Positions 4,029-11,395 of a stretch of DNA of 11,395 nucleotides are shown here, piece after piece. The notes under the pieces are model-generated. The model made no database searches, had not been told where the DNA came from, and saw nothing but the letters and a program-made list of their open reading frames with translations. Position 1 is the stretch's first letter. Each line of letters opens with the position of its first letter. This DNA comes from a virus, in the UHGV virus genome UHGV-0117955. One strand, written 5' to 3'. The position numbers and the translations under genes are program-made.

Positions 4029-4667
4029 TTAATTGCGAATGGAATCGCGGAACTCTTTACTTGATAGAAAAGGATCTGTTCTCCTTAACTCATCATAGTT
4101 TTTATTAAACTTTCTTGCTTCACCTGGGTATCTGTTGAACAAAACATTGCAGAAAAAAGAGAGCAATAACTCACATATGAATGCTAATACCCTGAAAAAT
4201 AAAGGTATAAAAAGAAGGGAAGGTTCATTGAAGTCTCTATTCCAAACAAAATAGACAATCATCCCGACATACCAAATTGATATCCCTATACTGATGATTG
4301 TTCCAACAGAGGTAACTACGACCCCGATTAAGTCGGACAGTCTGTTTGCCAGTAACTCATTTGAGTATCTTGCAATCATATACCGCCAACATTTTGCAAT
4401 ATCATCCTGATCTGTAGAGTCTTCTGGAATAGCTAGGCTTCTACATATTGAAGTAGCTCTTTTTTTCTCAACTCTTTTTGAGAGCCATCCATTAAAGAGA
4501 TACATCAACACCTGCGTTGCTATTCCTGCACCAAGTGATATCAAAGACATCCCAAAAAATCGCCATCCTGGAGATAGCGACTGGTACTGCCAAACAAAAA
4601 AAATTAAAAAACCCAATGAGCCTATGACATAGGCTGATGTATCGCTATATATATCTATTTTTTTCAT
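4029..4667 (-). CDS. Integral membrane protein (four predicted TM helices) in the sieA position; candidate superinfection-exclusion protein
   Basis: The track ORF 4029..4700 begins with GTG and has no Shine-Dalgarno sequence. The in-frame ATG at 4667 is preceded by AAGGAG (4677-4681 on the - strand) and is the preferred start, giving 212 aa. Four long hydrophobic segments (YVIGSLGFLIFFVWQY; FFGMSLISLGAGIATQVLMYLF; LIGVVVTSVGTIISIGISIWYVGMIVYFVW; LLFIPLFFRVLAFICELLLSFFCNVLF) separated by charged loops. Markedly AT-rich compared with the flanking structural genes. It lies directly downstream of, and on the same strand as, the Mnt-like gene, where P22 carries sieA. The functional call is positional only. 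Confidence 0.45.
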   Translation of the reverse strand: MKKIDIYSDTSAYVIGSLGFLIFFVWQYQSLSPGWRFFGMSLISLGAGIATQVLMYLFNGWLSKRVEKKRATSICRSLAIPEDSTDQDDIAKCWRYMIARYSNELLANRLSDLIGVVVTSVGTIISIGISIWYVGMIVYFVWNRDFNEPSLLFIPLFFRVLAFICELLLSFFCNVLFNRYPGEARKFNKNYDELRRTDPFLSSKEFRDSIRN

Positions 4668-4717
4668 TGAGTAGCCACTCCTTAGTTTTGAGCAGAACAC
4701 CGGATGATAATGTTTTG

Positions 4718-4969
4718 TTATGTGTCTTTTGGGATTCTATCCAGTAACTCGTTGGAAATTTTATCAAGTAAAGATTTTATTTGTTTAAGATCTAATGATT
4801 TGTCTACTGATGAGACGTCAGATGATAACGCATCCTCAAGAATTTGAACTATCTCTGAGTTCATAGATCGACCGTTTCGTTTAGCCCTTTCCGCAATAGC
4901 ACTACGCATGCCGTCAGGCATTCTAACCGTAAATCTTTCTATGAAATTTGATTCGTCTTTTTCTGACAT
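4718..4969 (-). CDS. Mnt-like ribbon-helix-helix repressor (copy 1)
   Basis: The translation contains FTVRMPDGMRSAIAERAKRNGRSMNSEIVQILEDALS, closely matching the N-terminal ribbon-helix-helix region of P22 Mnt/Arc (FNFRMP…ANGRSMNSELLQIVQDALS, recalled). The track ORF starts at 5017 with a hydrophobic leader that would overlap the promoter; the preferred start is the internal ATG at 4969, giving 83 aa (P22 Mnt is 83 aa). Stop TAA at 4718-4720. Confidence 0.7.
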   Translation of the reverse strand: MSEKDESNFIERFTVRMPDGMRSAIAERAKRNGRSMNSEIVQILEDALSSDVSSVDKSLDLKQIKSLLDKISNELLDRIPKDT

Positions 4970-5018
4970 TTTCTTATTCGCAAGGCATATGAGCAATAAA
5001 AAACACAGTAGCATCATA

Positions 5019-5079
5019 TTGACATTATGAGCAATGGCATCATAATGGTGTCATGACATCATGGTGATGTCATTATGAC
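5019..5079. promoter_or_regulatory. Divergent overlapping promoters with palindromic operator-like sites (Pant/Pmnt-like)
   Basis: Rightward promoter: -35 TTGACA (5019-5024), 16-bp spacer, -10 CATAAT (5041-5046). Candidate leftward promoter on the - strand: -35 TGACAC (5053-5048), 17-bp spacer, -10 CATAAT (5030-5025). Perfect 10-bp palindrome TGTCATGACA (5049-5058) at the predicted rightward transcript start. Perfect 11-bp palindrome GTCATtATGAC (5069-5079). Repeated TGACAT/ATGTCA half-sites at 5020, 5054 and 5067. The architecture mirrors the overlapping Pant/Pmnt and operators of P22 immI. Confidence 0.55.
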
Positions 5080-5089
5080 GGAGATATTG

Positions 5090-5266
5090 ATGATGAGCGA
5101 TGTTCTTTACAGTGGTCGTAAAAGTCAGAGTTTCCAGCTTCGTTTGCCAGCGCGAATGAAGGAGGAGATCAGACGCGTAGCTGAAATGGATGGAATTTCT
5201 ATCAACTCTGCGATTGTGCAGCGACTGGCTAAAAGCCTGAGAGAGGAAAGAGCTAATGCCCAGTAA
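5090..5266 (+). CDS. Arc-like ribbon-helix-helix repressor
   Basis: 58 aa from ATG 5090, with GGAG (5080-5083) 6 nt upstream; the track ORF start at 5075 has no Shine-Dalgarno sequence. The motif SFQLRLPARMKEEIRRVAEMDGISINSAIVQRLAKSL matches the Arc/Mnt fold (P22 Arc is 53 aa, with FNLRWP…NGRSVNSEIYQRV). It sits directly downstream of the TTGACA/CATAAT promoter. Confidence 0.7.
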   Translation: MMSDVLYSGRKSQSFQLRLPARMKEEIRRVAEMDGISINSAIVQRLAKSLREERANAQ

Positions 5267-5339
5267 AAATAGTGAAGCCCGGAAGTGCGCGAACACAAAC
5301 CGGGCCTCTATGTCAGTAACCGTACCCAAGGAAACTAAC

Positions 5340-5978
5340 ATGAATATTGTAGCAAAATCAGATTATAACTTCCAAGGATTCACTTTTAACCCTGTAACAG
5401 AGGGCGGGTCTATCTGGTTCACCTCCGCCGAACTAGCTAAGGCTCTCGGCTATAAAAAAACTGATGCCATCAGCCAAATTTATGCCCGTAATGCTGACGA
5501 ATTTTCCGACTCAATGTCATTGACCCTCAATATGAAGGTCAACGGAATAAACAATAGCTTACGTAACAAATCGGTCAGAGTTTACTCGCTCCGAGGCGCT
5601 CACTTGGTGGCGATGTTTGCTTCTACGCCCAAGGCCAAAGAGTTCCGCCGCTGGGTGCTGGATATTTTGGATCGGCAGGCAGAATGCTCACCGATTGCAA
5701 AACAGTTTACTGACGAAGAACTGGTTAATCTCTGCTACTTACAATTGTGGATGGAGAAGAGTCAACAAATGTGCAAACACATCTACCCAGGAATGAAGCA
5801 AATTGGTTCTGAGCTTTCAGGAAGGATTTACGATATTGCATATGAGACTCGCTACATGTCAGAAGAAACCAAGAAATCACTTCTTCGTGAAATGAAGAAT
5901 CTTGATACCAACAATTTTGTCGTAAAGAACGCTCAGCCAATGCTGGCAAAACTGCGCGGCGAGGAATGGATTCATTGA
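5340..5978 (+). CDS. Bro-N domain antirepressor-like protein
   Basis: ATG at 5340 preceded by AAGGAA (5327-5332). The N-terminus (FQGFTFNPVTEGGSIWFTSAELAKALGY) looks like a Bro-N/antirepressor N-terminal domain. An alternative upstream ATG at 5256 overlaps the arc stop and is considered less likely. Stop TGA at 5976-5978. Confidence 0.6.
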   Translation: MNIVAKSDYNFQGFTFNPVTEGGSIWFTSAELAKALGYKKTDAISQIYARNADEFSDSMSLTLNMKVNGINNSLRNKSVRVYSLRGAHLVAMFASTPKAKEFRRWVLDILDRQAECSPIAKQFTDEELVNLCYLQLWMEKSQQMCKHIYPGMKQIGSELSGRIYDIAYETRYMSEETKKSLLREMKNLDTNNFVVKNAQPMLAKLRGEEWIH

Positions 5979-5982
5979 TTGG

Positions 5983-6028
5983 TGCGCCGGACGGCGCAAA
6001 AAGAAAACCGCCAGTGTGCTGCTGGCGG
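5983..6028. other. Two GC-rich intercistronic stem-loops
   Basis: Hairpin 1: TGCGCC-ggac-GGCGCA (5983-5998). Hairpin 2: CCGCCAG-tgtgctg-CTGGCGG (6008-6028), a 7-bp stem with a 7-nt loop. An A-rich run (5998-6007) lies between them, so on the - strand hairpin 2 is followed by TTTTCTTTT and resembles an intrinsic terminator facing leftward. Confidence 0.5.
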
Positions 6029-6066
6029 CCTATGTCACACCCTTACTACCACATAAGGAATGCCTA

Positions 6067-6795
6067 ATGACTTTTAAGAATGTAGCAAACATCGGATCCG
6101 TTGTCACGGATAAAACCATTGATAGCCAGTACCTGTTAGAGATGGTCAATCATGCTCGTAGACATTGCGGGGAAAAAGAAGTCCGCAATAACGACTTTAT
6201 TGCACGCATTAAGGATGAACTTGAAGGTGAGCACTACGAAATTTTCGTAGTTCAAAAATCAAACAAGACAACTTCTGAAAAAGTTGTTATGTCAATTAAG
6301 CAAGCCCTTCGAGTGGCTGCTCGTGAATCTAAAGCTGTTCGCCGCTCACTTGTAGACCAACTTGAAAGTATGCAAGAAGCGCACATTAAAAGCGGTAAAT
6401 CGTCGAGTGGACTTGTTGAGTATCGCCAGGCGCGAACATTGAAAATGACGGTTGAAGCTGTTACCAATCTGTTCGATTTGATGCCAAATCTTGCGCCGGA
6501 AGCAAAGCAGACTGCGGCAGCAAGCATAATCAACCCGATCGTTGGTTTTAATGCAATACCTCTTCCAGCAATAGAAGAGCATTACTACTCAGCAGGGGAG
6601 GTTGCAGAGCAGCTTGGAGTAACGGCCAACAAGATTGGTCGCATTGCTAACGCAAACAACCTCAAAACTGAGCAGTACGGTAAGTTCTTCCTGGATAAAT
6701 CTGCGCATTCCAGCAAACAGGTGGAAGCATTCCGCTACAATGCGGAAGGTGTTAAAGCACTACAACACCTGATTCATGGGAGTAATGTTGCATAA
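6067..6795 (+). CDS. Antirepressor-like protein (possible AntA-like N-terminus and KilA-C/ANT-like C-terminus)
   Basis: ATG at 6067 preceded by AAGGAA (6055-6060); the track ORF begins at a GTG at 6016. 242 aa. The C-terminal segment YYSAGEVAEQLGVTANKIGRIANANNL resembles the helix-turn-helix-like core of phage KilA-C/ANT domains, and the N-terminal part (…NDFIARIKDEL…) loosely resembles AntA-type domains. Domain calls are from memory and need an HMM search. The gene sits where ant sits in P22 immI. Confidence 0.4.
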   Translation: MTFKNVANIGSVVTDKTIDSQYLLEMVNHARRHCGEKEVRNNDFIARIKDELEGEHYEIFVVQKSNKTTSEKVVMSIKQALRVAARESKAVRRSLVDQLESMQEAHIKSGKSSSGLVEYRQARTLKMTVEAVTNLFDLMPNLAPEAKQTAAASIINPIVGFNAIPLPAIEEHYYSAGEVAEQLGVTANKIGRIANANNLKTEQYGKFFLDKSAHSSKQVEAFRYNAEGVKALQHLIHGSNVA

Positions 6796-7016
6796 TGGCA
6801 AAGAAAAAATATGGCATTATGCCGCCAAGAATCAAAGGAAGAGCCAGGGTAAAAGGCGATGCTGGAAGGTATCACATTCTTGGAGTTCTGTGGCATGAGA
6901 GAGCTTTAATTTTAAGTAGACCTCATGGGTACATTGAAAAGGTATCTATAGATAGAGTAGAGATTCTTCCCCTTACACCTGAAGAAGAAGAAACGTACGG
7001 ACTTTTTGATAACTAA
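6795..7016 (+). CDS. Hypothetical small protein (73 aa), translationally coupled to the upstream gene
   Basis: TAATG stop/start overlap at 6793-6797. GGGAG at 6778-6782. Basic N-terminus (MAKKKYGIMPPRIKGRARVKGD) and acidic C-terminus (TPEEEETYGLFDN). No recognisable motif. Ends just before the terminator at 7024. Confidence 0.5.
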   Translation: MAKKKYGIMPPRIKGRARVKGDAGRYHILGVLWHERALILSRPHGYIEKVSIDRVEILPLTPEEEETYGLFDN

Positions 7017-7023
7017 CCAACTA

Positions 7024-7047
7024 AACCCGCTTAATCGCGGGTTTTTT
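7024..7047. terminator. Intrinsic terminator between convergent genes
   Basis: AACCCGC-ttaatc-GCGGGTT stem-loop (7024-7043) followed by TTTTTT on the + strand. It lies between the stop of the 73-aa ORF (7016) and the convergent mnt-like gene, whose last codons and stop (7031-7033) are encoded within the stem. Confidence 0.7.
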
Positions 7048-7288
7048 CTTTTCTAAGGATATCAGCCACAACTTCTTTTACTCGTTCCGAGATTAATGAG
7101 GCCAGCCTCTCTTCTTCATCGCGATGCCCGCTTACAGGTGATGGTTTGGAGAGTGATTCTTCCATCGTAGCCACAATTTCGGAATTGATAGACCTGTTAT
7201 TCATTTTTGCACGTTGCTTAATCTTAGCGTGCAACTCGTGCGTAAGCCTCAAGTGGAACTGCGCCTCATCGTATTTGCTGTACATCAT
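7031..7288 (-). CDS. mnt: Mnt-like ribbon-helix-helix repressor (copy 2; the closer match to P22 Mnt)
   Basis: The translation MMYSKYDEAQFHLRLTHELHAKIKQRAKMNNRSINSEIVATMEESLSKPSPVSGHRDEEERLASL… aligns along its length with P22 Mnt as recalled (…FNFRMP…ANGRSMNSELLQIVQDALSKPSPVTGYRNDAERLA…). 85 aa from ATG 7288, with GAGG 5 nt upstream on the - strand. The track ORF (7031..7684) extends 132 codons further upstream across the tailspike start and is treated as a spurious extension. Confidence 0.8.
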   Translation of the reverse strand: MMYSKYDEAQFHLRLTHELHAKIKQRAKMNNRSINSEIVATMEESLSKPSPVSGHRDEEERLASLISERVKEVVADILRKEKTRD

Positions 7289-7420
7289 CAATGCCTCACC
7301 AAATGGGTGGAATGGCATCGTAAAACCTACTGTACAAATCAACAATCGTACCATTTCGGTATGCAATAAACGCCAACCGTAGCCATGCTGCGGCGATTCC
7401 TTGTATCTGGAGCAAATTAA

Positions 7421-10153
7421 ATGACAGACATTACAGCTAATGTTGTAGTGAGTATGCCTTCGCAACTCTTCACTATGGCTCGTTCTTTTAAAGCCGTAGC
7501 TAATGGCAAAATTTATATCGGTAAAATTGACACTGACCCTGTAAATCCTGAAAACCAGATTCAGGTTTATGTGGAGAACGAAGACGGTTCTCACGTTCCT
7601 GTTGCACAGCCAATCGTCATTAATGCTGCTGGATATCCGGTATATAACGGGCAGATTGCCAAATTCGTAACTGTGCAAGGCCATTCTATGGCTGTATATG
7701 ATGCGTATGGCACGCAGCAGTTCTATTTCCCTAATGTGCTGAAGTATGACCCGGATCAGTTACGGCAGCAATTAGAAGATCCTGATGGTGCTAAAAAATA
7801 CCCTGAATTACAGATTGCACGATGGCGGGATGATAAAGACGTTCGCGGGTGGGGGGCGGATGACTCTGGGAATAGAGATTCAACACAGGCTTTTCTTGAC
7901 GCCGCATCTAGCGCAGGAAAGAGTGGTTTGGTTCATGTGCCTTCTGGTGAGTTTATAGTTGATGCATCGAAAATAGATATTTCACGCTTCTCCGGTGATG
8001 GTGTTCTAATCAGTAATGGTGTTCGCATTTCTGTTAATCCGCCGATGCAAAGTTTCTCCATTGGACAAAGAAAACTTGCGACCCTGAATTTTGGTGATGA
8101 TATCAATGCGCCAACTATATATGCGAATGCACAAAATGCATTGCAGGGAATAGCTTGTGTAAGGCATGAAGGTATTGAGAAGGTTTTTATCACTCAACAG
8201 GTTGGAGGTTCTAACTGGGGAAAGGACACCCTCACAAGGATCAGTGAGTGGCACTATACAAGCGATGGTTCAACTCTTTATGTTGTGACATTTACAGAGC
8301 CATTGCCTCTTGGTCACGGTTCAGATCTTTCTGCCACAATAGAGAACGGTGAACTATATCTGTTTACAACAACAATTGCTGAGACTGGTTCCTCTCTAGG
8401 AGGGAAGGGGTATTCAAAGACAAAATGGAAAGGGGCATCAACATCTGCTGAAGATATAACTCATTACCGAGTATTTGGTGAGCCGGGTGATAATAATCTG
8501 ATTAACCTTGCGCAGCGGGCAAGTATTTGTGTATCTAATGATGGGCGATATGTCATATTAATTGCGACATCAAACGCTGGGACTGGCCGCTTTTTATACG
8601 TATATGATCGCAAAGAAGTGGAATCTTCTTCTAACCCAATGAAAGTTAGACCGATTAATGGTCCTGTTCCACTTGTCCGTGGTAAAGGTCAGTATGGTGC
8701 AACACTTCAGGGTATTACATCAGATAGCAGATATATTTACACAATTTGGGGTGGCGTTCCTGCAAGATGCGTAAGGACAGTACAGATTTATGATATGGGT
8801 GGTACGCTAATACGTTCATTTCCTGTATCACTTGCCGCATCACTTTATACAGAGACTCAGTTAAATGGTTCTGACTCTAAAATCGGAGTTCCGGTTAGCT
8901 TTGAGCCTGAAGGGCTGGCAATAAGAGGTGATGAACTTGTCTGTGGTGCTATGGATGTATGGAAAAGCGCAGGGGATGTTGTAAGCCATCGTGGTAAAAA
9001 TTGGGTAAGTATTGTTACTGGTGATAACAAGGGAAATCTTCCGACAAACAGGTCTTATTGGTTAAAAACATCGCTTGCAGCGACAAGTGGTGAATGGGAT
9101 TCAGGCGCAACATATAAATCAGGTGATTATACTCGCAGAAATAAGCATCTGTTTGGAATAGCAAACCTGTCTGATATTCTTGGCAACCATCCAGTGCATG
9201 GTGCAGAATCCGATCCGTATACCGGAACCGCGCATCAATATTATGCTGGAACTGATATCGCCTTTAACCGTGAGCACGGTTCATTTACTATTGCGATATT
9301 TGACGAAGCCATTGGAGAGTATACCAAATCCCTCGAGTTGAATTATGGAAATAACCTTAACCTGTTTGATACAGATTACGGACATGACAATAATTCATGG
9401 GTAAGTACGAAAGCAGTATTCGACTCAAACTTTCGAGGTATGCAGTTCCGTTCTAAAGATGGGAATACTGCGGGTGGTGCTTATATTGATATCCATGCTG
9501 CTGATTGTCCATCTGCGGCTGGTGAGTTGATACTTGCCTCTACAGATGGAGGTGTCGTCAGACTTAAGCAGGGGAATGTAACAGTATTTTCTGCGACTAA
9601 AGATACTACATCGACATGGGCGACGACGACATTAAGGCCAACAACTGATAACCAGGTATCACTTGGAAGGTCCGTTAACCGCTTTTCTCAGGTCTACGCA
9701 GGGACTGCAACTATAAATACATCTGATGCAACAGAGAAAACGGAAGTCAGAACTCTTTCCGATAAAGAGCAGGCGGTTGGGTTAGCTCTTGTTGATGAAA
9801 TTGGTTTTTATCAATGGCTTGATAGTGTAAAAAATAAGGGAGCTGATGCCAGACTTCATGCCGGACTTACGGTGCAACGGGCAATGGAAATATTCAGAGA
9901 GAATGGACTTGATCCATTTAAATACGGAGCGATCTGCTATGACAGATGGGATGCATATGCAGATACAGATCCTGCTATTTATGATGATAAAGGTAACCTT
10001 GTTCGTGAGGCTATAACTATTACGCATGAAGCAGGAGAACGCTATGCATTCAGAAATGATGAATTACAGTATCTAATGATTGCTGCATTAGGTATACGTC
10101 AGAAAAATATTATAAAGAGGATTGAAGAACTGGAAAATAAGCTTGCAAATTAA
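7421..10153 (+). CDS. Tailspike protein: P22-type N-terminal head-binding domain fused to a divergent receptor-binding/depolymerase body
   Basis: GGAG at 7409-7412, ATG at 7421. The first ~115 aa ([11 protein letters not shown]…[39 protein letters not shown]…[13 protein letters not shown]…NVLKYDPDQ) are near-identical in pattern to the N-terminus of P22 gp9 as recalled. The rest (about 795 aa, against 667 aa total in P22) is unlike the P22 endorhamnosidase body. The last ~142 aa resemble a C-terminal intramolecular chaperone module: a TSD motif at Ser768 (nt 9722-9724), then [20 protein letters not shown] and a terminal coiled-coil-like [14 protein letters not shown]. Confidence 0.85.
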
Positions 10154-10235
10154 CTATTTTACTGACACCTTAAGTCTCAATATTACCAATTGAAGTCTAT
10201 GTTTTTTGGGTGTTTTAGTAATTTGTTATAGATAA

Positions 10236-10274
10236 ATGTCACTCCTTAAAGATATCGCATTCTAGGAGTGACAT
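10236..10274. repeat. Perfect 11-bp inverted repeat (stem-loop) between convergent genes
   Basis: ATGTCACTCCT (10236-10246) and AGGAGTGACAT (10264-10274) flank a 17-nt loop containing GATATC. It lies between the tailspike stop (10153) and the acetyltransferase stop (10309). No clean T-tract on either side, so it is not a canonical intrinsic terminator. Confidence 0.6.
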
Positions 10275-10308
10275 GTGATTTACTTGTCGTTCAATATATG
10301 GTGTGTTT

Positions 10309-11019
10309 TTATTGTTTTTCTTTTGTTAGGTTCCAATATTCACTTGTGGTTTTTATGGAGTCCTTATTAGGCTTTACATAAGGTTTATGTATGGAGAGAT
10401 GAGGTCTTTCCCAGGCAATGTCTTTTTTTATTACTCTTGCTGGAACTCCTGCTGCAATAGAGTTATTTGGGACGTGTCCTTTAACAACAGCTGCATAGCC
10501 AATAACACTACCACTTTCGATTTCTGCACCACCAAGTATTGCCGCTCGGCGGCCAACCCAGACATGACTTCCAATATAAATAGATTTTGGCATATTTATA
10601 CGTTCACCTGTTACTACACTAAAAATAGGGTGGGAGTCATCAGTTTTAACTTCATTTCCACTTGAAAACATGCAGTCATCGCCAATAATTATGCTTGAGT
10701 TTTCTACAGCAGAAATCATACCTTTACCAGTGCAAGTGAAATCAGAGCCTATTTTTATGGAGGAATTCTCACCCACTCTTATATGGGCTTGTATACCTTT
10801 GTTTGCGATATGGCATGGGCCAATTTCAAAATACCCATTGTTGCAGTCAAAATATATCTCAAAATATTTTAATGATGCATCTTTATGAATGATAAGTTTA
10901 TTATTAGATCCTCTAAACTGAATTAGTTTGACGTCACAACTACCTTCGTACTGGATCTCATTACCCATTTCATCAGAATACTTCTCTGCTTTTGTTAAAA
11001 CAACTTTTCTAATTTTCAT
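10309..11019 (-). CDS. Hexapeptide-repeat (left-handed beta-helix) acyl/acetyltransferase; candidate lysogenic-conversion enzyme
   Basis: The C-terminal half carries typical hexapeptide-repeat motifs (IGDDCMFSSGNEV…IYIGSHVWVGRRAAILGGAEIESGSVIGYAAVVKGHVPNNSIAAGVPARVI). Strongly AT-rich relative to the structural genes. The track ORF begins at a TTG (11043); the first ATG is at 11019 (MKIRKVVL…), and neither has a strong Shine-Dalgarno sequence, so the start is uncertain. Stop TAA at 10309-10311. Confidence 0.75.
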   Translation of the reverse strand: MKIRKVVLTKAEKYSDEMGNEIQYEGSCDVKLIQFRGSNNKLIIHKDASLKYFEIYFDCNNGYFEIGPCHIANKGIQAHIRVGENSSIKIGSDFTCTGKGMISAVENSSIIIGDDCMFSSGNEVKTDDSHPIFSVVTGERINMPKSIYIGSHVWVGRRAAILGGAEIESGSVIGYAAVVKGHVPNNSIAAGVPARVIKKDIAWERPHLSIHKPYVKPNKDSIKTTSEYWNLTKEKQ

Positions 11020-11091
11020 ATTATCAATAAGTAAAAAATGCAAATGAAAATTTCAAATTTACATTATCTGGCGAGGTAATGCAACACGGAT

Positions 11092-11147
11092 GATTGGGGG
11101 GGCAGTATAATCACAATATCAACTAAAACATACCAGATGGGGGGGCA
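11092..11147. repeat. Two homopolymeric G7 tracts in a repeated GAT(T)GGGGGGGCA motif
   Basis: GATTGGGGGGGCA (11092-11104) and GATGGGGGGGCA (11136-11147), with the G7 runs at 11096-11102 and 11139-11145. TATAAT at 11106-11111 lies between them. Located 50-130 bp upstream of the acetyltransferase start, on the opposite strand. Confidence 0.6.
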
Positions 11148-11263
11148 TGCCTCATCGAAGTAAGGCAATTTTGGACACTGTCAAATAGAATGGTGCAATC
11201 ACTACTTTTTTGGTGTTACCATGATTTTAATGGATGAAAAACTTGCTGTGTCAGTTTTTCATC

Positions 11264-11284
11264 TGTGTACCAGATTGTGTACCA
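11264..11284. repeat. Tandem direct repeat TGTGTACCA x2
   Basis: TGTGTACCA at 11264-11272 and 11276-11284, separated by GAT. It lies in the AT-rich non-coding region upstream of a gene start at the window edge (AAGGA at 11381-11385, ATG at 11391). Confidence 0.5.
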
Positions 11285-11395
11285 ATTTAGCGATTGTTGG
11301 CTAGATGGTATCGTAATCAACTGTAAATAAACAAGTTTTCTCTTTGTATGTGATCTTTCGTGTGGGTCACCACTGCAAATAAGGATATAAAATGC

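Follow-up and report, generated by a model that had tools for sequence, protein, structure and literature searches.

The tailspike gene and its surroundings

The window, that is the whole stretch of DNA that was analysed (11,395 nt from the virus genome UHGV-0117955), carries an open reading frame at 7421..10153 on the plus strand, which starts with ATG and encodes 910 aa; its coordinates are the same as in the preliminary description. The gene is named "phage tailspike protein" by RefSeq in five E. coli genomes, and NCBIfam gave no family for it. The genes for P22_gp7 and Inj_translocase lie upstream, followed by the Arc and antirepressor genes of the immI region. With this position downstream of gp7/gp20/gp16 (ejection) and of the immI region, the tailspike gene fits the order of P22-like virion genes. 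Among the unannotated reading frames of the immI region PADLOC gave marginal matches only, and a promoter and terminator scan around the tailspike gene found fewer promoter-like sites than the shuffle expectation.

Convergent with the tailspike gene is a gene encoding a NeuO-like hexapeptide-repeat O-acetyltransferase of 236 aa (10309..11019, minus strand; PF00132 Hexapep). The protein is 38.5% identical to NeuO of prophage CUS-3 over 74% of its length, and its matches to sugar O-acetyltransferases in NCBIfam are sub-cutoff. Upstream of its start, within 11096..11145, there are two poly-G tracts (11096–11102 and 11139–11145) whose lengths vary between strains. The first tract is G7 in the window and in strain MS 16-3, G8 in E4 and G6 in GMF065; the second is G7 in the window, E4 and MS 16-3, and G6 in GMF065. 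When the window, E4 and MS 16-3 are compared, the first tract contains the sole indel of the 4-kb module. No tandem (heptanucleotide) repeats were found in 10150–11395.

The tailspike gene was matched in five of 5,426 complete E. coli genomes, and these five hosts represent at least two lineages. The 910-codon reading frame is intact in the window and in four genomes, with all residues of the S74 site and all family-invariant residues (see below) kept. In GMF065 only a remnant truncated by ISEc31 is left, together with an intact acetyltransferase gene. The acetyltransferase is 99.2–100% identical in all five hosts, and the 90% cluster that contains the tailspike has 264 member sequences. Complete P22-like structural modules surround the tailspike gene in E4 and MS 16-3. 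The housekeeping DNA of these two strains differs by 1.5–3%, their prophages are mosaic, and the tailspike-acetyltransferase module is 99.3% identical between them.

Domain organisation of the tailspike

The head-binding (particle-attachment) domain occupies residues 1–113 (7421..7759, plus strand), where Pfam Head_binding (PF09008) scores 222.6 bits against a cut-off of 24. The solved chains of Sf6 gp14 (7sg7, E 7.5e-64) and P22 gp9 (1lkt/2xc1, E 1e-44 to 5e-51) align to this N-terminus, and their alignment is confined to residues 1–118; beyond residue 118 the solved chains revealed no likeness to P22 gp9. This bears out the preliminary description, which had likened the first ~115 aa, but not the rest, to gp9. 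A gp9-type body, i.e., a right-handed parallel beta-helix (gp9 ~125–666), was considered and rejected, as nothing aligns past residue 118 and the model described below is a propeller. On the DNA level, the first ~340 nt of the gene recur at 85–93% identity in P22-like phages and in upwards of 1,100 E. coli prophages. The linker or neck that follows (residues 114–139, 7760..7837, plus strand) is a recombination junction common to many tailspikes. This segment alone is 65–80% identical across dozens of otherwise unrelated tailspikes, endosialidases included, and DNA identity with the tailspikes of the Gally type extends as far as nt 437 of the gene.

The body is colinear with the neck appendage gp12 of Bacillus phage GA-1 (29% identity over residues 153–890, BLASTP E 4e-77; Foldseek E 1.8e-39, TM 0.59). 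Structure prediction, which the preliminary description had proposed for the body, yielded a beta-propeller. The AF2 model, which is that of a monomer (pLDDT 75.5, pTM 0.71), contains five four-stranded blades. Its alignment was shallow, with 14 sequences, because a second word-indexed homologue search with the body profile added few. All parts of the body lie on the plus strand. Ahead of the propeller is a small alpha/beta cap domain (residues 140–222, 7838..8086; pLDDT 78–89) with a vestigial N-terminal motif of the pectate-lyase type: PF12708 matches residues 141–186 at 16.3 bits, which is below its cut-off, and in the same region the family profile also matches the N-termini of polygalacturonase and glucanase in the PDB. 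The propeller or "platform" comprises residues ~223–514 (8087..8962). It is followed by a CBM5/12-like insertion of ~50 residues (515–565, 8963..9115; PF02839 at 19.5 bits, cut-off 26.2), for which W514, G525, P541 and W547 are kept in Gram-negative relatives, and by an all-beta distal "tower"-like domain (residues 566–732, 9116..9616).

The best structural matches of the body are phi11 Gp45, the NF5 RBP and the P68 fibre, and the five-bladed platform can be superposed on platforms of the phi11, P68 or NF5 kind. The family profile likewise matches the RBP of Brochothrix phage NF5 (E 2.3e-5), with the motifs GHG, QG and EPEG in common. Pfam Phage_RBD_prop (PF21311) reaches 11.7 bits on the body and stays below its threshold of 23.7. 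In searches of the body against Pfam (E 10, isolated domains) and NCBIfam no hydrolase or lyase family was matched, and the hints obtained were sub-threshold. The family to which the body belongs comprises 159 clusters of 50% identity at E below 1e-30, and Kayfunavirus and N4-like phages have homologues too. Its invariant propeller residues Q242, H299, T341, Q430, E495 and E497 would line a central pocket, judging from the strand positions in the model. H299, E495 and E497, which the model places in the inner blade strands or immediately ahead of them, are kept in 97–100% of 143 diverse relatives. The pocket is a likely candidate for the site that engages the capsule repeat unit. Alternatively, the invariant H/E/E/Q residues could coordinate a metal in a structural role and be neither ligand-binding nor catalytic; structural metal sites occur in other five-bladed propellers.

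A triple-beta-helix stalk (residues 733–767, 9617..9721, plus strand) carries D743 and R754, matches the C-terminal part of PF12219 (25.2 bits) and aligns to the stalks of T5 pb1, endoNF and the phi92 endosialidase. This kind of stalk always stands ahead of an S74 domain, and here a Peptidase S74 intramolecular chaperone follows (residues 768–910 and the stop codon, 9722..10153, plus strand). Peptidase_S74 (PF13884) scores 31.7 bits at residues 768–829 against a cut-off of 22, and residues 723–905 align to the PDB chains 7y5s, 4uw8 (T5 pb1), 3gud (GA-1) and 3gw6 (endoNF) with E values of 9e-36 to 7e-16. A chaperone of this type had been proposed earlier from an "S-D…K" pattern, which corresponds to S768-D769…K773, and the domain matches agree with this. 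The position given for the nucleophile, Ser768, was also correct: S768, K773, D743 and R754 are in register with Ser1264, Lys1269, Asp1239 and Arg1250 of T5 pb1, so that by alignment all four residues of the site are conserved. The last ~30 residues are helical and heptad-like. In S74 proteins the arginine of the cleavage site is supplied by a neighbouring subunit. Cleavage is predicted at T767|S768, with S768 as the nucleophile and K773 as the base, following the mechanism and cleavage position described for S74 domains (PMC4690869). The S74 domain would drive trimerisation of the distal stalk and then remove itself, with K773-activated S768 attacking the T767–S768 bond and leaving an 83-kDa mature spike (predicted masses: precursor 99.3 kDa, mature protein 83.1 kDa, chaperone 16.3 kDa).

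The host capsule as candidate receptor

Three genes, namely the tailspike, the acetyltransferase and a capsule GT8 gene, occur in exactly the same five of the 5,426 genomes. Assuming independence, the chance probability is 2.6e-17. The K locus of these hosts is a rare group-2 locus consisting of kpsMT, a cytidylyltransferase, a TagF-like CDP-glycerol glycerophosphotransferase, GT8 and kpsSCUDEF. Strain SE15 carries this locus, but without GT8. TagF-like polymerases in Gram-negative bacteria, including E. coli, make teichoic-acid-like capsules (PMC8262930). The O antigen is O7 in E4 and EC24, and O4 in MS 16-3. As the co-occurrence with the rare K locus is perfect in hosts of different O serogroups, the capsule is most likely the receptor rather than a P22-type O antigen, as the preliminary description, which left room for another polysaccharide, had also suggested. 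The receptor is probably the rare glycerol-phosphate ("teichoic-acid-like") group-2 capsule, an assignment based on co-occurrence in five genomes, one of which (GMF065) contributes the IS-truncated remnant. The prophage and the capsule could also be linked for another reason, for example if this capsule background alone selects for the acetyltransferase.

An assignment of the host capsule to K2 found no support: the gene content of region 2 in the K2 strain CFT073 differs, and the cytidylyltransferases are 79% and the TagF-like enzymes only 24% identical. A paper on the K2 capsule and phages contains nothing on K2 depolymerases (PMC12488582). Phage depolymerases that could be used to analyse the linker of teichoic-acid-like group-2 capsules have not been identified (PMC11666461). 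In the literature outside subscription journals we found no prior link of this spike family to glycerol-phosphate capsules.

What the analysis shows is the domain composition, the homologies, the conservation of the catalytic residues and the genomic co-occurrence. The gene is best read as encoding the receptor-binding spike of a P22/Sf6-like E. coli prophage integrated beside thrS, a mosaic of three parts that are set by Pfam, PDB sequence and PHROG matches. Taken as a whole, we regard the following explanation as probable. The head-binding domain would plug the trimer into a P22-type tail. The body would fold as a "platform plus tower", like the receptor proteins with which Gram-positive phages bind wall teichoic acid, and each subunit would carry one five-bladed propeller. 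The capsule would be a teichoic-acid-like poly(glycosyl-glycerol-phosphate) made by the glycerol-3-phosphate cytidylyltransferase, the TagF-like CDP-glycerol glycerophosphotransferase and the GT8 glycosyltransferase, and the spike would recognise this polymer. The acetyltransferase is a probable lysogenic-conversion partner of the tailspike and, in the lysogen, would add O-acetyl groups to this capsule. We put the odds at about even that the capsule polymer is not only bound but also cleaved in the pocket, by a phosphodiesterase or a glycosidase activity. The characterised capsule-specific podovirus spikes are usually depolymerases.

A rival reading takes up the sialidase-like propeller for which the preliminary description had seen weak support, and regards the body as an endosialidase-like six-bladed sialidase propeller, with which the spike would depolymerise polysialic acid or another sialic-acid capsule in the manner of CUS-3 and K1F. 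CUS-3 indeed has the same head-binding domain, S74 layout and NeuO-like neighbour, the C-terminal stalk gives a match to the end of PF12219, and an endosialidase propeller is among the weak BFVD matches (E 1e-9, TM 0.23). The three Asp-box-like strings from which this reading had been derived are present where they had been located (TSDGSTLY at residue 280, nt 8258; SNDGRYV at residue 372, nt 8534; STDGGVV at residue 707, nt 9539). Two of them are conserved hairpin turns of propeller blades and the third lies outside the propeller. However, a regular-expression search for the Asp-box consensus S-x-D-x-G-x-T-W found none in the tailspike, only S/T-x-DG turns. The propeller itself stands, but it has five blades and the fold of the phi11/P68/NF5 type. 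The endosialidase families PF12217, PF12218 and PF12195 gave no match in the tailspike even at E 10, endosialidase structures are absent among the best 50–60 PDB fold matches, and the only endosialidase-like piece is the short stalk at residues 733–767. A sialidase-like propeller is thus largely refuted, and we give this reading hardly any credence. Most P22-like tailspikes target the O antigen or LPS, and this spike might do the same, the capsule link then being a by-product of clonal descent. Most characterised tailspikes with this head-binding domain (P22, Sf6, HK620) are O-antigen endoglycosidases, and lineage effects are possible for a gene seen in only five genomes. Nevertheless, spikes that are ~99% identical reside in hosts with different O-antigen clusters (O7 in E4 and EC24, O4 in MS 16-3), the backbone genes of E4 and MS 16-3 are 1.5–3% apart, and O7 clusters occur in 99 genomes, with the spike present in only two of the 60 that were listed. 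A related spike, PGN829.1 RBP1, is reported from prophages that cover four O serogroups (PMC10408124), which weakly argues in the same direction. This RBP could not be equated with the Gally-type prophage spike module, to which it is only 46% identical, so the statement on serogroups concerns other prophages. On balance, an O-antigen receptor appears unlikely.

The remnant in GMF065, with its ISEc31-truncated tailspike beside an intact acetyltransferase gene, and the near identity of the acetyltransferase in all five hosts (99.2–100%) would suit a decaying tailspike gene without current function, in which case maintenance of the acetyltransferase alone causes the association. This is very unlikely given that the 910-codon frame is intact in the window and four genomes with its S74-site and invariant residues present, that the tailspike is found in complete P22-like structural gene sets, and that its 90% cluster has 264 member sequences. 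A lectin-like adhesin role has been proposed for phi11 Gp45. Along these lines, the spike may be a non-enzymatic adhesin for the glycerol-phosphate capsule, the phage getting to the outer membrane through gaps in the capsule or with the help of another virion enzyme. Only the catalytic step sets this variant apart from the best explanation, and we see it as a realistic possibility without favouring it. The closest solved relatives, those of phi11, P68 and NF5, have no demonstrated enzymatic activity and are described as binders only (PMC4901313, PMC12917162), the body matches no CAZy-type or hydrolase family, and the CBM5/12-like insertion suggests an extra binding surface. Against this, the capsule-specific podovirus spikes characterised so far are depolymerases, the fold neighbours of the body beyond phage receptor-binding proteins are mostly enzymes, and H299, E495 and E497 are invariant though the glycans of the hosts must differ, which fits a shared chemistry better than variable ligand contacts.

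Implications and comparison with known systems

The architecture alone is ordinary, since other modular tailspikes are already known to combine a P22 head-binding domain with an S74 chaperone. The family of the body is sizeable and uncharacterised, and the only relatives with solved structures are receptor proteins by which Gram-positive phages bind teichoic acid. Two diverged E. coli members almost perfectly track different CDP-glycerol/TagF-type loci, which leads to a concrete receptor assignment. If enzymatic, the spike would provide a tool for group-2 capsules of the teichoic-acid-like type, and it could be considered for capsule typing or against virulence. The pairing of the tailspike with a NeuO-like acetyltransferase suggests that K-antigen modification is driven by a prophage in a second case. 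More speculatively, and with considerable doubt on our part, the propeller family may be a conserved module for recognition and possibly cleavage of polyol phosphates in Gram-positive and Gram-negative phages, recruited here against teichoic-acid-like group-2 capsules; the window would then hold the first such depolymerase and a second CUS-3-like system. Gram-positive phages have the propeller in wall-teichoic-acid receptor proteins and in neck appendages, and in Gram-negative phages it is carried by different adaptors. If this holds, the depolymerase is perhaps a phosphodiesterase that uses H299, E495 and E497, and the NeuO-like enzyme would create O-acetyl K-antigen variants comparable to K2a/K2ab.

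Among the known systems, GA-1 gp12 (UniProt Q9FZW3; chaperone PDB 3GUD) has the cap, propeller, distal beta domain, stalk and S74 domain in the same order as the tailspike, and the same pocket residues and Ser/Lys dyad. It differs at the N-terminus, where a separate region for attachment to a phi29-like collar replaces the P22 head-binding domain, and in pairwise alignment it is without the 50-residue CBM5/12-like insertion at 515–565. The host of GA-1 is Gram-positive, whereas here it is E. coli. We know of no functional characterisation of the gp12 body. The receptor-binding proteins phi11 Gp45 (5EFV), P68 tail fibre (6IAB) and NF5 RBP (9M7X) have an N-terminal coiled-coil stem and no S74 chaperone; the triple coiled-coil stem of the phi11-type proteins, which is a siphovirus baseplate anchor, is absent here, and its place is taken by the P22 head-binding domain. 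The ligand of these proteins is the wall teichoic acid of Gram-positive hosts, to which the phi11 Gp45 propeller binds (PMC4901313), whereas a capsule of a Gram-negative host is the presumed ligand here. The role of the propeller fold in Gram-negative phages has been called unclear (PMC12491483).

P22 gp9 and Sf6 gp14 have the head-binding domain (residues 1–118) and the genomic position after the ejection genes and immI region in common with the tailspike. Their bodies differ, being right-handed beta-helix O-antigen endorhamnosidases without a chaperone domain. The Gally/vB_EcoP-683R2 type of tailspike (P0009; prophages of E. coli 7/2, LF82, NRG 857C and A0 34/86) shares the head-binding domain and the linker, with DNA that is 93% identical over 437 nt, and its propeller body is homologous (36–37% identity); in place of the S74 chaperone it has a different C-terminal knob. 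It was found in 44 genomes, at least 40 of which have a second CDP-glycerol/TagF-type K locus (0.5 expected). This K locus, probably K24, differs from the one described here in its GT29 and TPR genes, and the downstream gene encodes a GDSL esterase and not a hexapeptide acetyltransferase.

A system of the same kind is CUS-3 of E. coli K1, a P22-like prophage whose tailspike likewise combines the head-binding domain with a capsule-specific body and an S74 chaperone. The CUS-3 body is an unrelated GH58 six-bladed sialidase, in contrast to the five-bladed propeller of the GA-1/phi11 type, and its capsule is polysialic acid, whereas a glycerol-phosphate polymer is presumed here. NeuO of CUS-3 is phase-variable through heptanucleotide repeats in the 5′ coding region; here the variable poly-G tracts are located upstream of the gene. 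In both systems a convergent hexapeptide O-acetyltransferase gene follows the tailspike gene, and occurrence is limited to hosts of one K type, which in the present case is a small sample of five genomes.

The prophage end and its tailspike module

The final bases of the window are the start of thrS, and what precedes them is the right end of the P22/Sf6-like Escherichia coli prophage that adjoins this gene. Upstream of the tailspike gene lie ejection genes of the P22 gp7, gp20 and gp16 types and then, at 4029–7016, an immI-like region whose genes, on mixed strands, include Arc and antirepressor types. The related prophages of E. coli E4 and MS 16-3 contain nothing that matches this region at the DNA level, and the prophage is therefore mosaic. 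Its ORFs are found at 4029–4700 (−), 4718–5017 (−, Arc-like), 5051–5341 (−), 5256–5978 (+, a Bro-N/P22_AR_C antirepressor), 6016–6795 (+) and 6795–7016 (+). Three of them have no Pfam family, and PADLOC returned marginal matches only.

The tailspike ORF (7421–10153, +) runs uninterrupted for 910 codons. An antisense ORF of 217 aa that overlaps its start (7031–7684, −) is not in the RefSeq annotation and is probably spurious. The gene is also present in E. coli E4, MS 16-3, TUM10008 and EC24 at 98.8–99.6% DNA identity, and databases already list its uncharacterised product, which RefSeq labels “phage tailspike protein” in these four strains. The copy in E. coli GMF065 is truncated by an ISEc31 insertion at about residue 100, while the neighboring acetyltransferase gene is intact (L013:1–3154), so that the conversion gene outlives the phage.

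This neighbor, convergent to the tailspike gene, encodes a hexapeptide-repeat O-acetyltransferase (10309–11019, −) with 38.5% identity to NeuO, which O-acetylates the K1 capsule and is encoded by prophage CUS-3. The NeuO-like enzyme would presumably acetylate the capsule. Two poly-G tracts lie upstream of its start. Tract 1 (11096–11102) reads G7 in both the window and MS 16-3, G8 in E4 and G6 in GMF065; tract 2 (11139–11145) reads G6 in GMF065 and G7 in the other three. Tract 1 contains the sole indel of the 4-kb tailspike-acetyltransferase module among the window, E4 and MS 16-3, which could reflect either a switch for phase variation or a sequencing error in the homopolymer. The G+C content is 0.43–0.45 in the prophage and spike body and falls across 9722–11019, to 0.39 in the C-terminal S74 domain of the spike and 0.36 in the gene for the acetyltransferase, which fits modules of separate origin.

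Architecture of the tailspike

Residues 1–113 are a Head_binding domain (PF09008, 222.6 bits in Pfam), and in a PDB sequence search the alignment with the solved Sf6 gp14 and P22 gp9 chains is confined to residues 1–118. Only the first 340–437 nt of the gene are common to other P22-like phages and more than 1,100 E. coli prophages. Residues 118–730 gave no PDB sequence match and no Pfam family above threshold. A motif (v.dfGA.gDG.tDdT.AF) characteristic of N-terminal caps in pectate-lyase-type beta-helix tailspikes is seen ahead of the propeller described below (residues 141–186, window 7841–7978), with weak matches to PF12708 and, in the PDB, to a polygalacturonase and a glucanase. It may be a vestige of beta-helix spikes or an adaptor in common with them.

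We modeled the body (residues 118–767) with AlphaFold2 from an alignment of 14 sequences (pLDDT 75.5, pTM 0.71). The model leads from a small alpha/beta cap through five four-strand antiparallel sets, predicted to be a five-bladed propeller, to an all-beta distal domain. Among predicted viral structures the neck appendage protein of Bacillus phage GA-1 (gp12) is clearly the top match (E 1.8e-39, TM 0.59). Residues 153–890, including the S74 domain, are colinear with GA-1 gp12 by BLASTP (29% identity, E 4e-77), except for a CBM5/12-like insertion of 50 residues between the last blade and the distal domain, which is missing in GA-1 (residues 515–565, window 8963–9115). Gram-negative relatives keep W514, G525, P541 and W547 here, and the insertion is a possible secondary carbohydrate-binding site. 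The preliminary description had pointed to Asp-box-like motifs; all three strings are present, yet each departs from the Asp-box consensus, and two are conserved hairpin turns of propeller blades.

When 1.84 billion representative proteins were searched exhaustively with a profile, 882 relatives emerged at E ≤ 1e-3 and 159 at E ≤ 1e-30, bearing many different N-terminal adaptors. The family profile also picks up the NF5 RBP at the sequence level (E 2.3e-5; common motifs GHG, QG and EPEG). PF21311, the Pfam model of the phi11-type platform, scores only 11.7 bits on the tailspike, so that by this criterion the domain is a distant relative and not a member. Among polar residues, conservation across 143 non-redundant members, which are 21–100% identical to the query (median 31%), is highest for E495 (100%), H299 (98%), E497 (97%), T341 (96%), Q242 (93%) and Q430 (90%). 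In the model, blades 4 and 5 carry Q430, E495 and E497 on their innermost strands, and Q242 and H299 come just ahead of the innermost strands of blades 1 and 2. In phi11 Gp45, the proposed GlcNAc cavity is lined by Gln165, Thr211 and Gln330 (PMC4901313); by relative position, the conserved tailspike residues appear to occupy the equivalent place.

A Peptidase_S74 intramolecular chaperone (PF13884, 31.7 bits in Pfam) forms the C-terminus and aligns with the chaperone-containing structures of T5 pb1, endoNF, GA-1 gp12 and 7y5s. All four self-cleavage site residues described for T5 pb1 (PMC4690869) are present (D743, R754, S768 and K773), and both the alignment and that paper bear out Ser768, the cleavage residue first proposed from the sequence. 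Cleavage should thus occur between T767 and S768, predicting a mature protein of 83.1 kDa and a freed S74 domain of 16.3 kDa.

Co-occurrence with glycerol-phosphate capsule loci

The host O antigens differ, with an O7 cluster in E4 and EC24 and an O4 cluster in MS 16-3. E4 carries a group-2 kps locus (L008:21550–36396), whose serotype-specific region 2 encodes a glycerol-phosphate cytidylyltransferase-like protein, a TagF-like CDP-glycerol glycerophosphotransferase, a large KpsS/LipB-family protein and a GT8 glycosyltransferase. In Gram-negative bacteria, enzymes of this type produce capsules of teichoic-acid-like poly(glycosyl-glycerol-phosphate) (Litschko et al., PMC8262930). The GT8 gene occurs in 5 of 5,426 complete E. 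coli genomes, the same five as the tailspike, and the acetyltransferase is limited to these five as well. If tailspike and GT8 gene were independent, the probability of this coincidence would be 2.6e-17.

Descent from a single clone is inadequate to explain the co-occurrence, because E4 and MS 16-3 have diverged in their backbones, with differences of 1.5% in thrS-nlpC and of 3% in the his operon, and their prophages outside the module are mosaic (88–97% identity or unmatched), whereas the module is 99.3% identical. The window prophage departs from both upstream of position 7376. Strains SE15 and SCU-102 have the first three region-2 genes of the E4-type K locus at 94–96% identity and lack both the GT8 gene and the tailspike, which makes them naturally occurring, near-isogenic controls for the receptor. 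CFT073, whose K2 locus has a different gene set, represents a third glycerol-phosphate type.

The pairing of the Gally-type tailspike, from sister E. coli prophages, with a K locus is a second, independent case of co-occurrence. This spike shares the head-binding domain of the window spike and, at 36–37% identity, its propeller body, but lacks the S74 domain. It is found in 44 genomes, at least 40 of which are among the 60 listed of 61 with another CDP-glycerol/TagF-type region 2 (expected overlap 0.5; P about 6e-81). Strain A0 34/86, which has this second locus, is presumably O83:K24:H31, and the locus is therefore probably K24. K24 contains alpha-Kdo (PMC12887879). In E. coli 7/2, region 2 holds a GT29-family gene, a TPR protein and a gene labeled “phage baseplate protein” (L009:9001–14522), and in its Gally-type prophage a GDSL/SGNH esterase gene convergent to the tailspike takes the place of the acetyltransferase gene (L010:6520–7056).

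From the observed architecture, homology, residue conservation and genomic co-occurrence we infer a capsule-specific tailspike that engages a teichoic-acid-like capsule as its receptor, and likewise the binding site.

Proposed mechanism and comparison with known spikes

In the proposed mechanism, the P22-type domain would dock the tailspike, the S74 chaperone would aid folding and trimerisation and then cut itself off, and three five-bladed propellers would contact the teichoic-acid-like capsule. The spike may cleave the polymer as well as bind it, with about even odds. The invariance of H299, E495 and E497 across hosts whose glycans must differ argues for cleavage, although residues of this type could hold a structural metal ion. 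Also in favor of cleavage, the non-phage fold neighbors are mostly enzymes and capsule-specific podovirus spikes are generally depolymerases. Against it, the solved phage relatives are known as binders only and the tailspike matches no hydrolase or lyase family.

In the searchable literature, neither a description of this propeller family from coliphages nor a link between it and glycerol-phosphate capsules turned up. A 2025 paper describes as unclear what propeller folds do in phage depolymerases (PMC12491483), and according to a 2024 paper, K1 and K5 are the only group-2 capsules for which phage depolymerases have been used as tools (PMC11666461). Unlike neuO, the acetyltransferase gene is without tandem repeats. 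The layout is otherwise that of CUS-3, where a head-binding domain and a capsule-specific body with an S74 domain are followed by neuO. Chimeric spikes combining a head-binding domain with an S74 domain are already known from that prophage.
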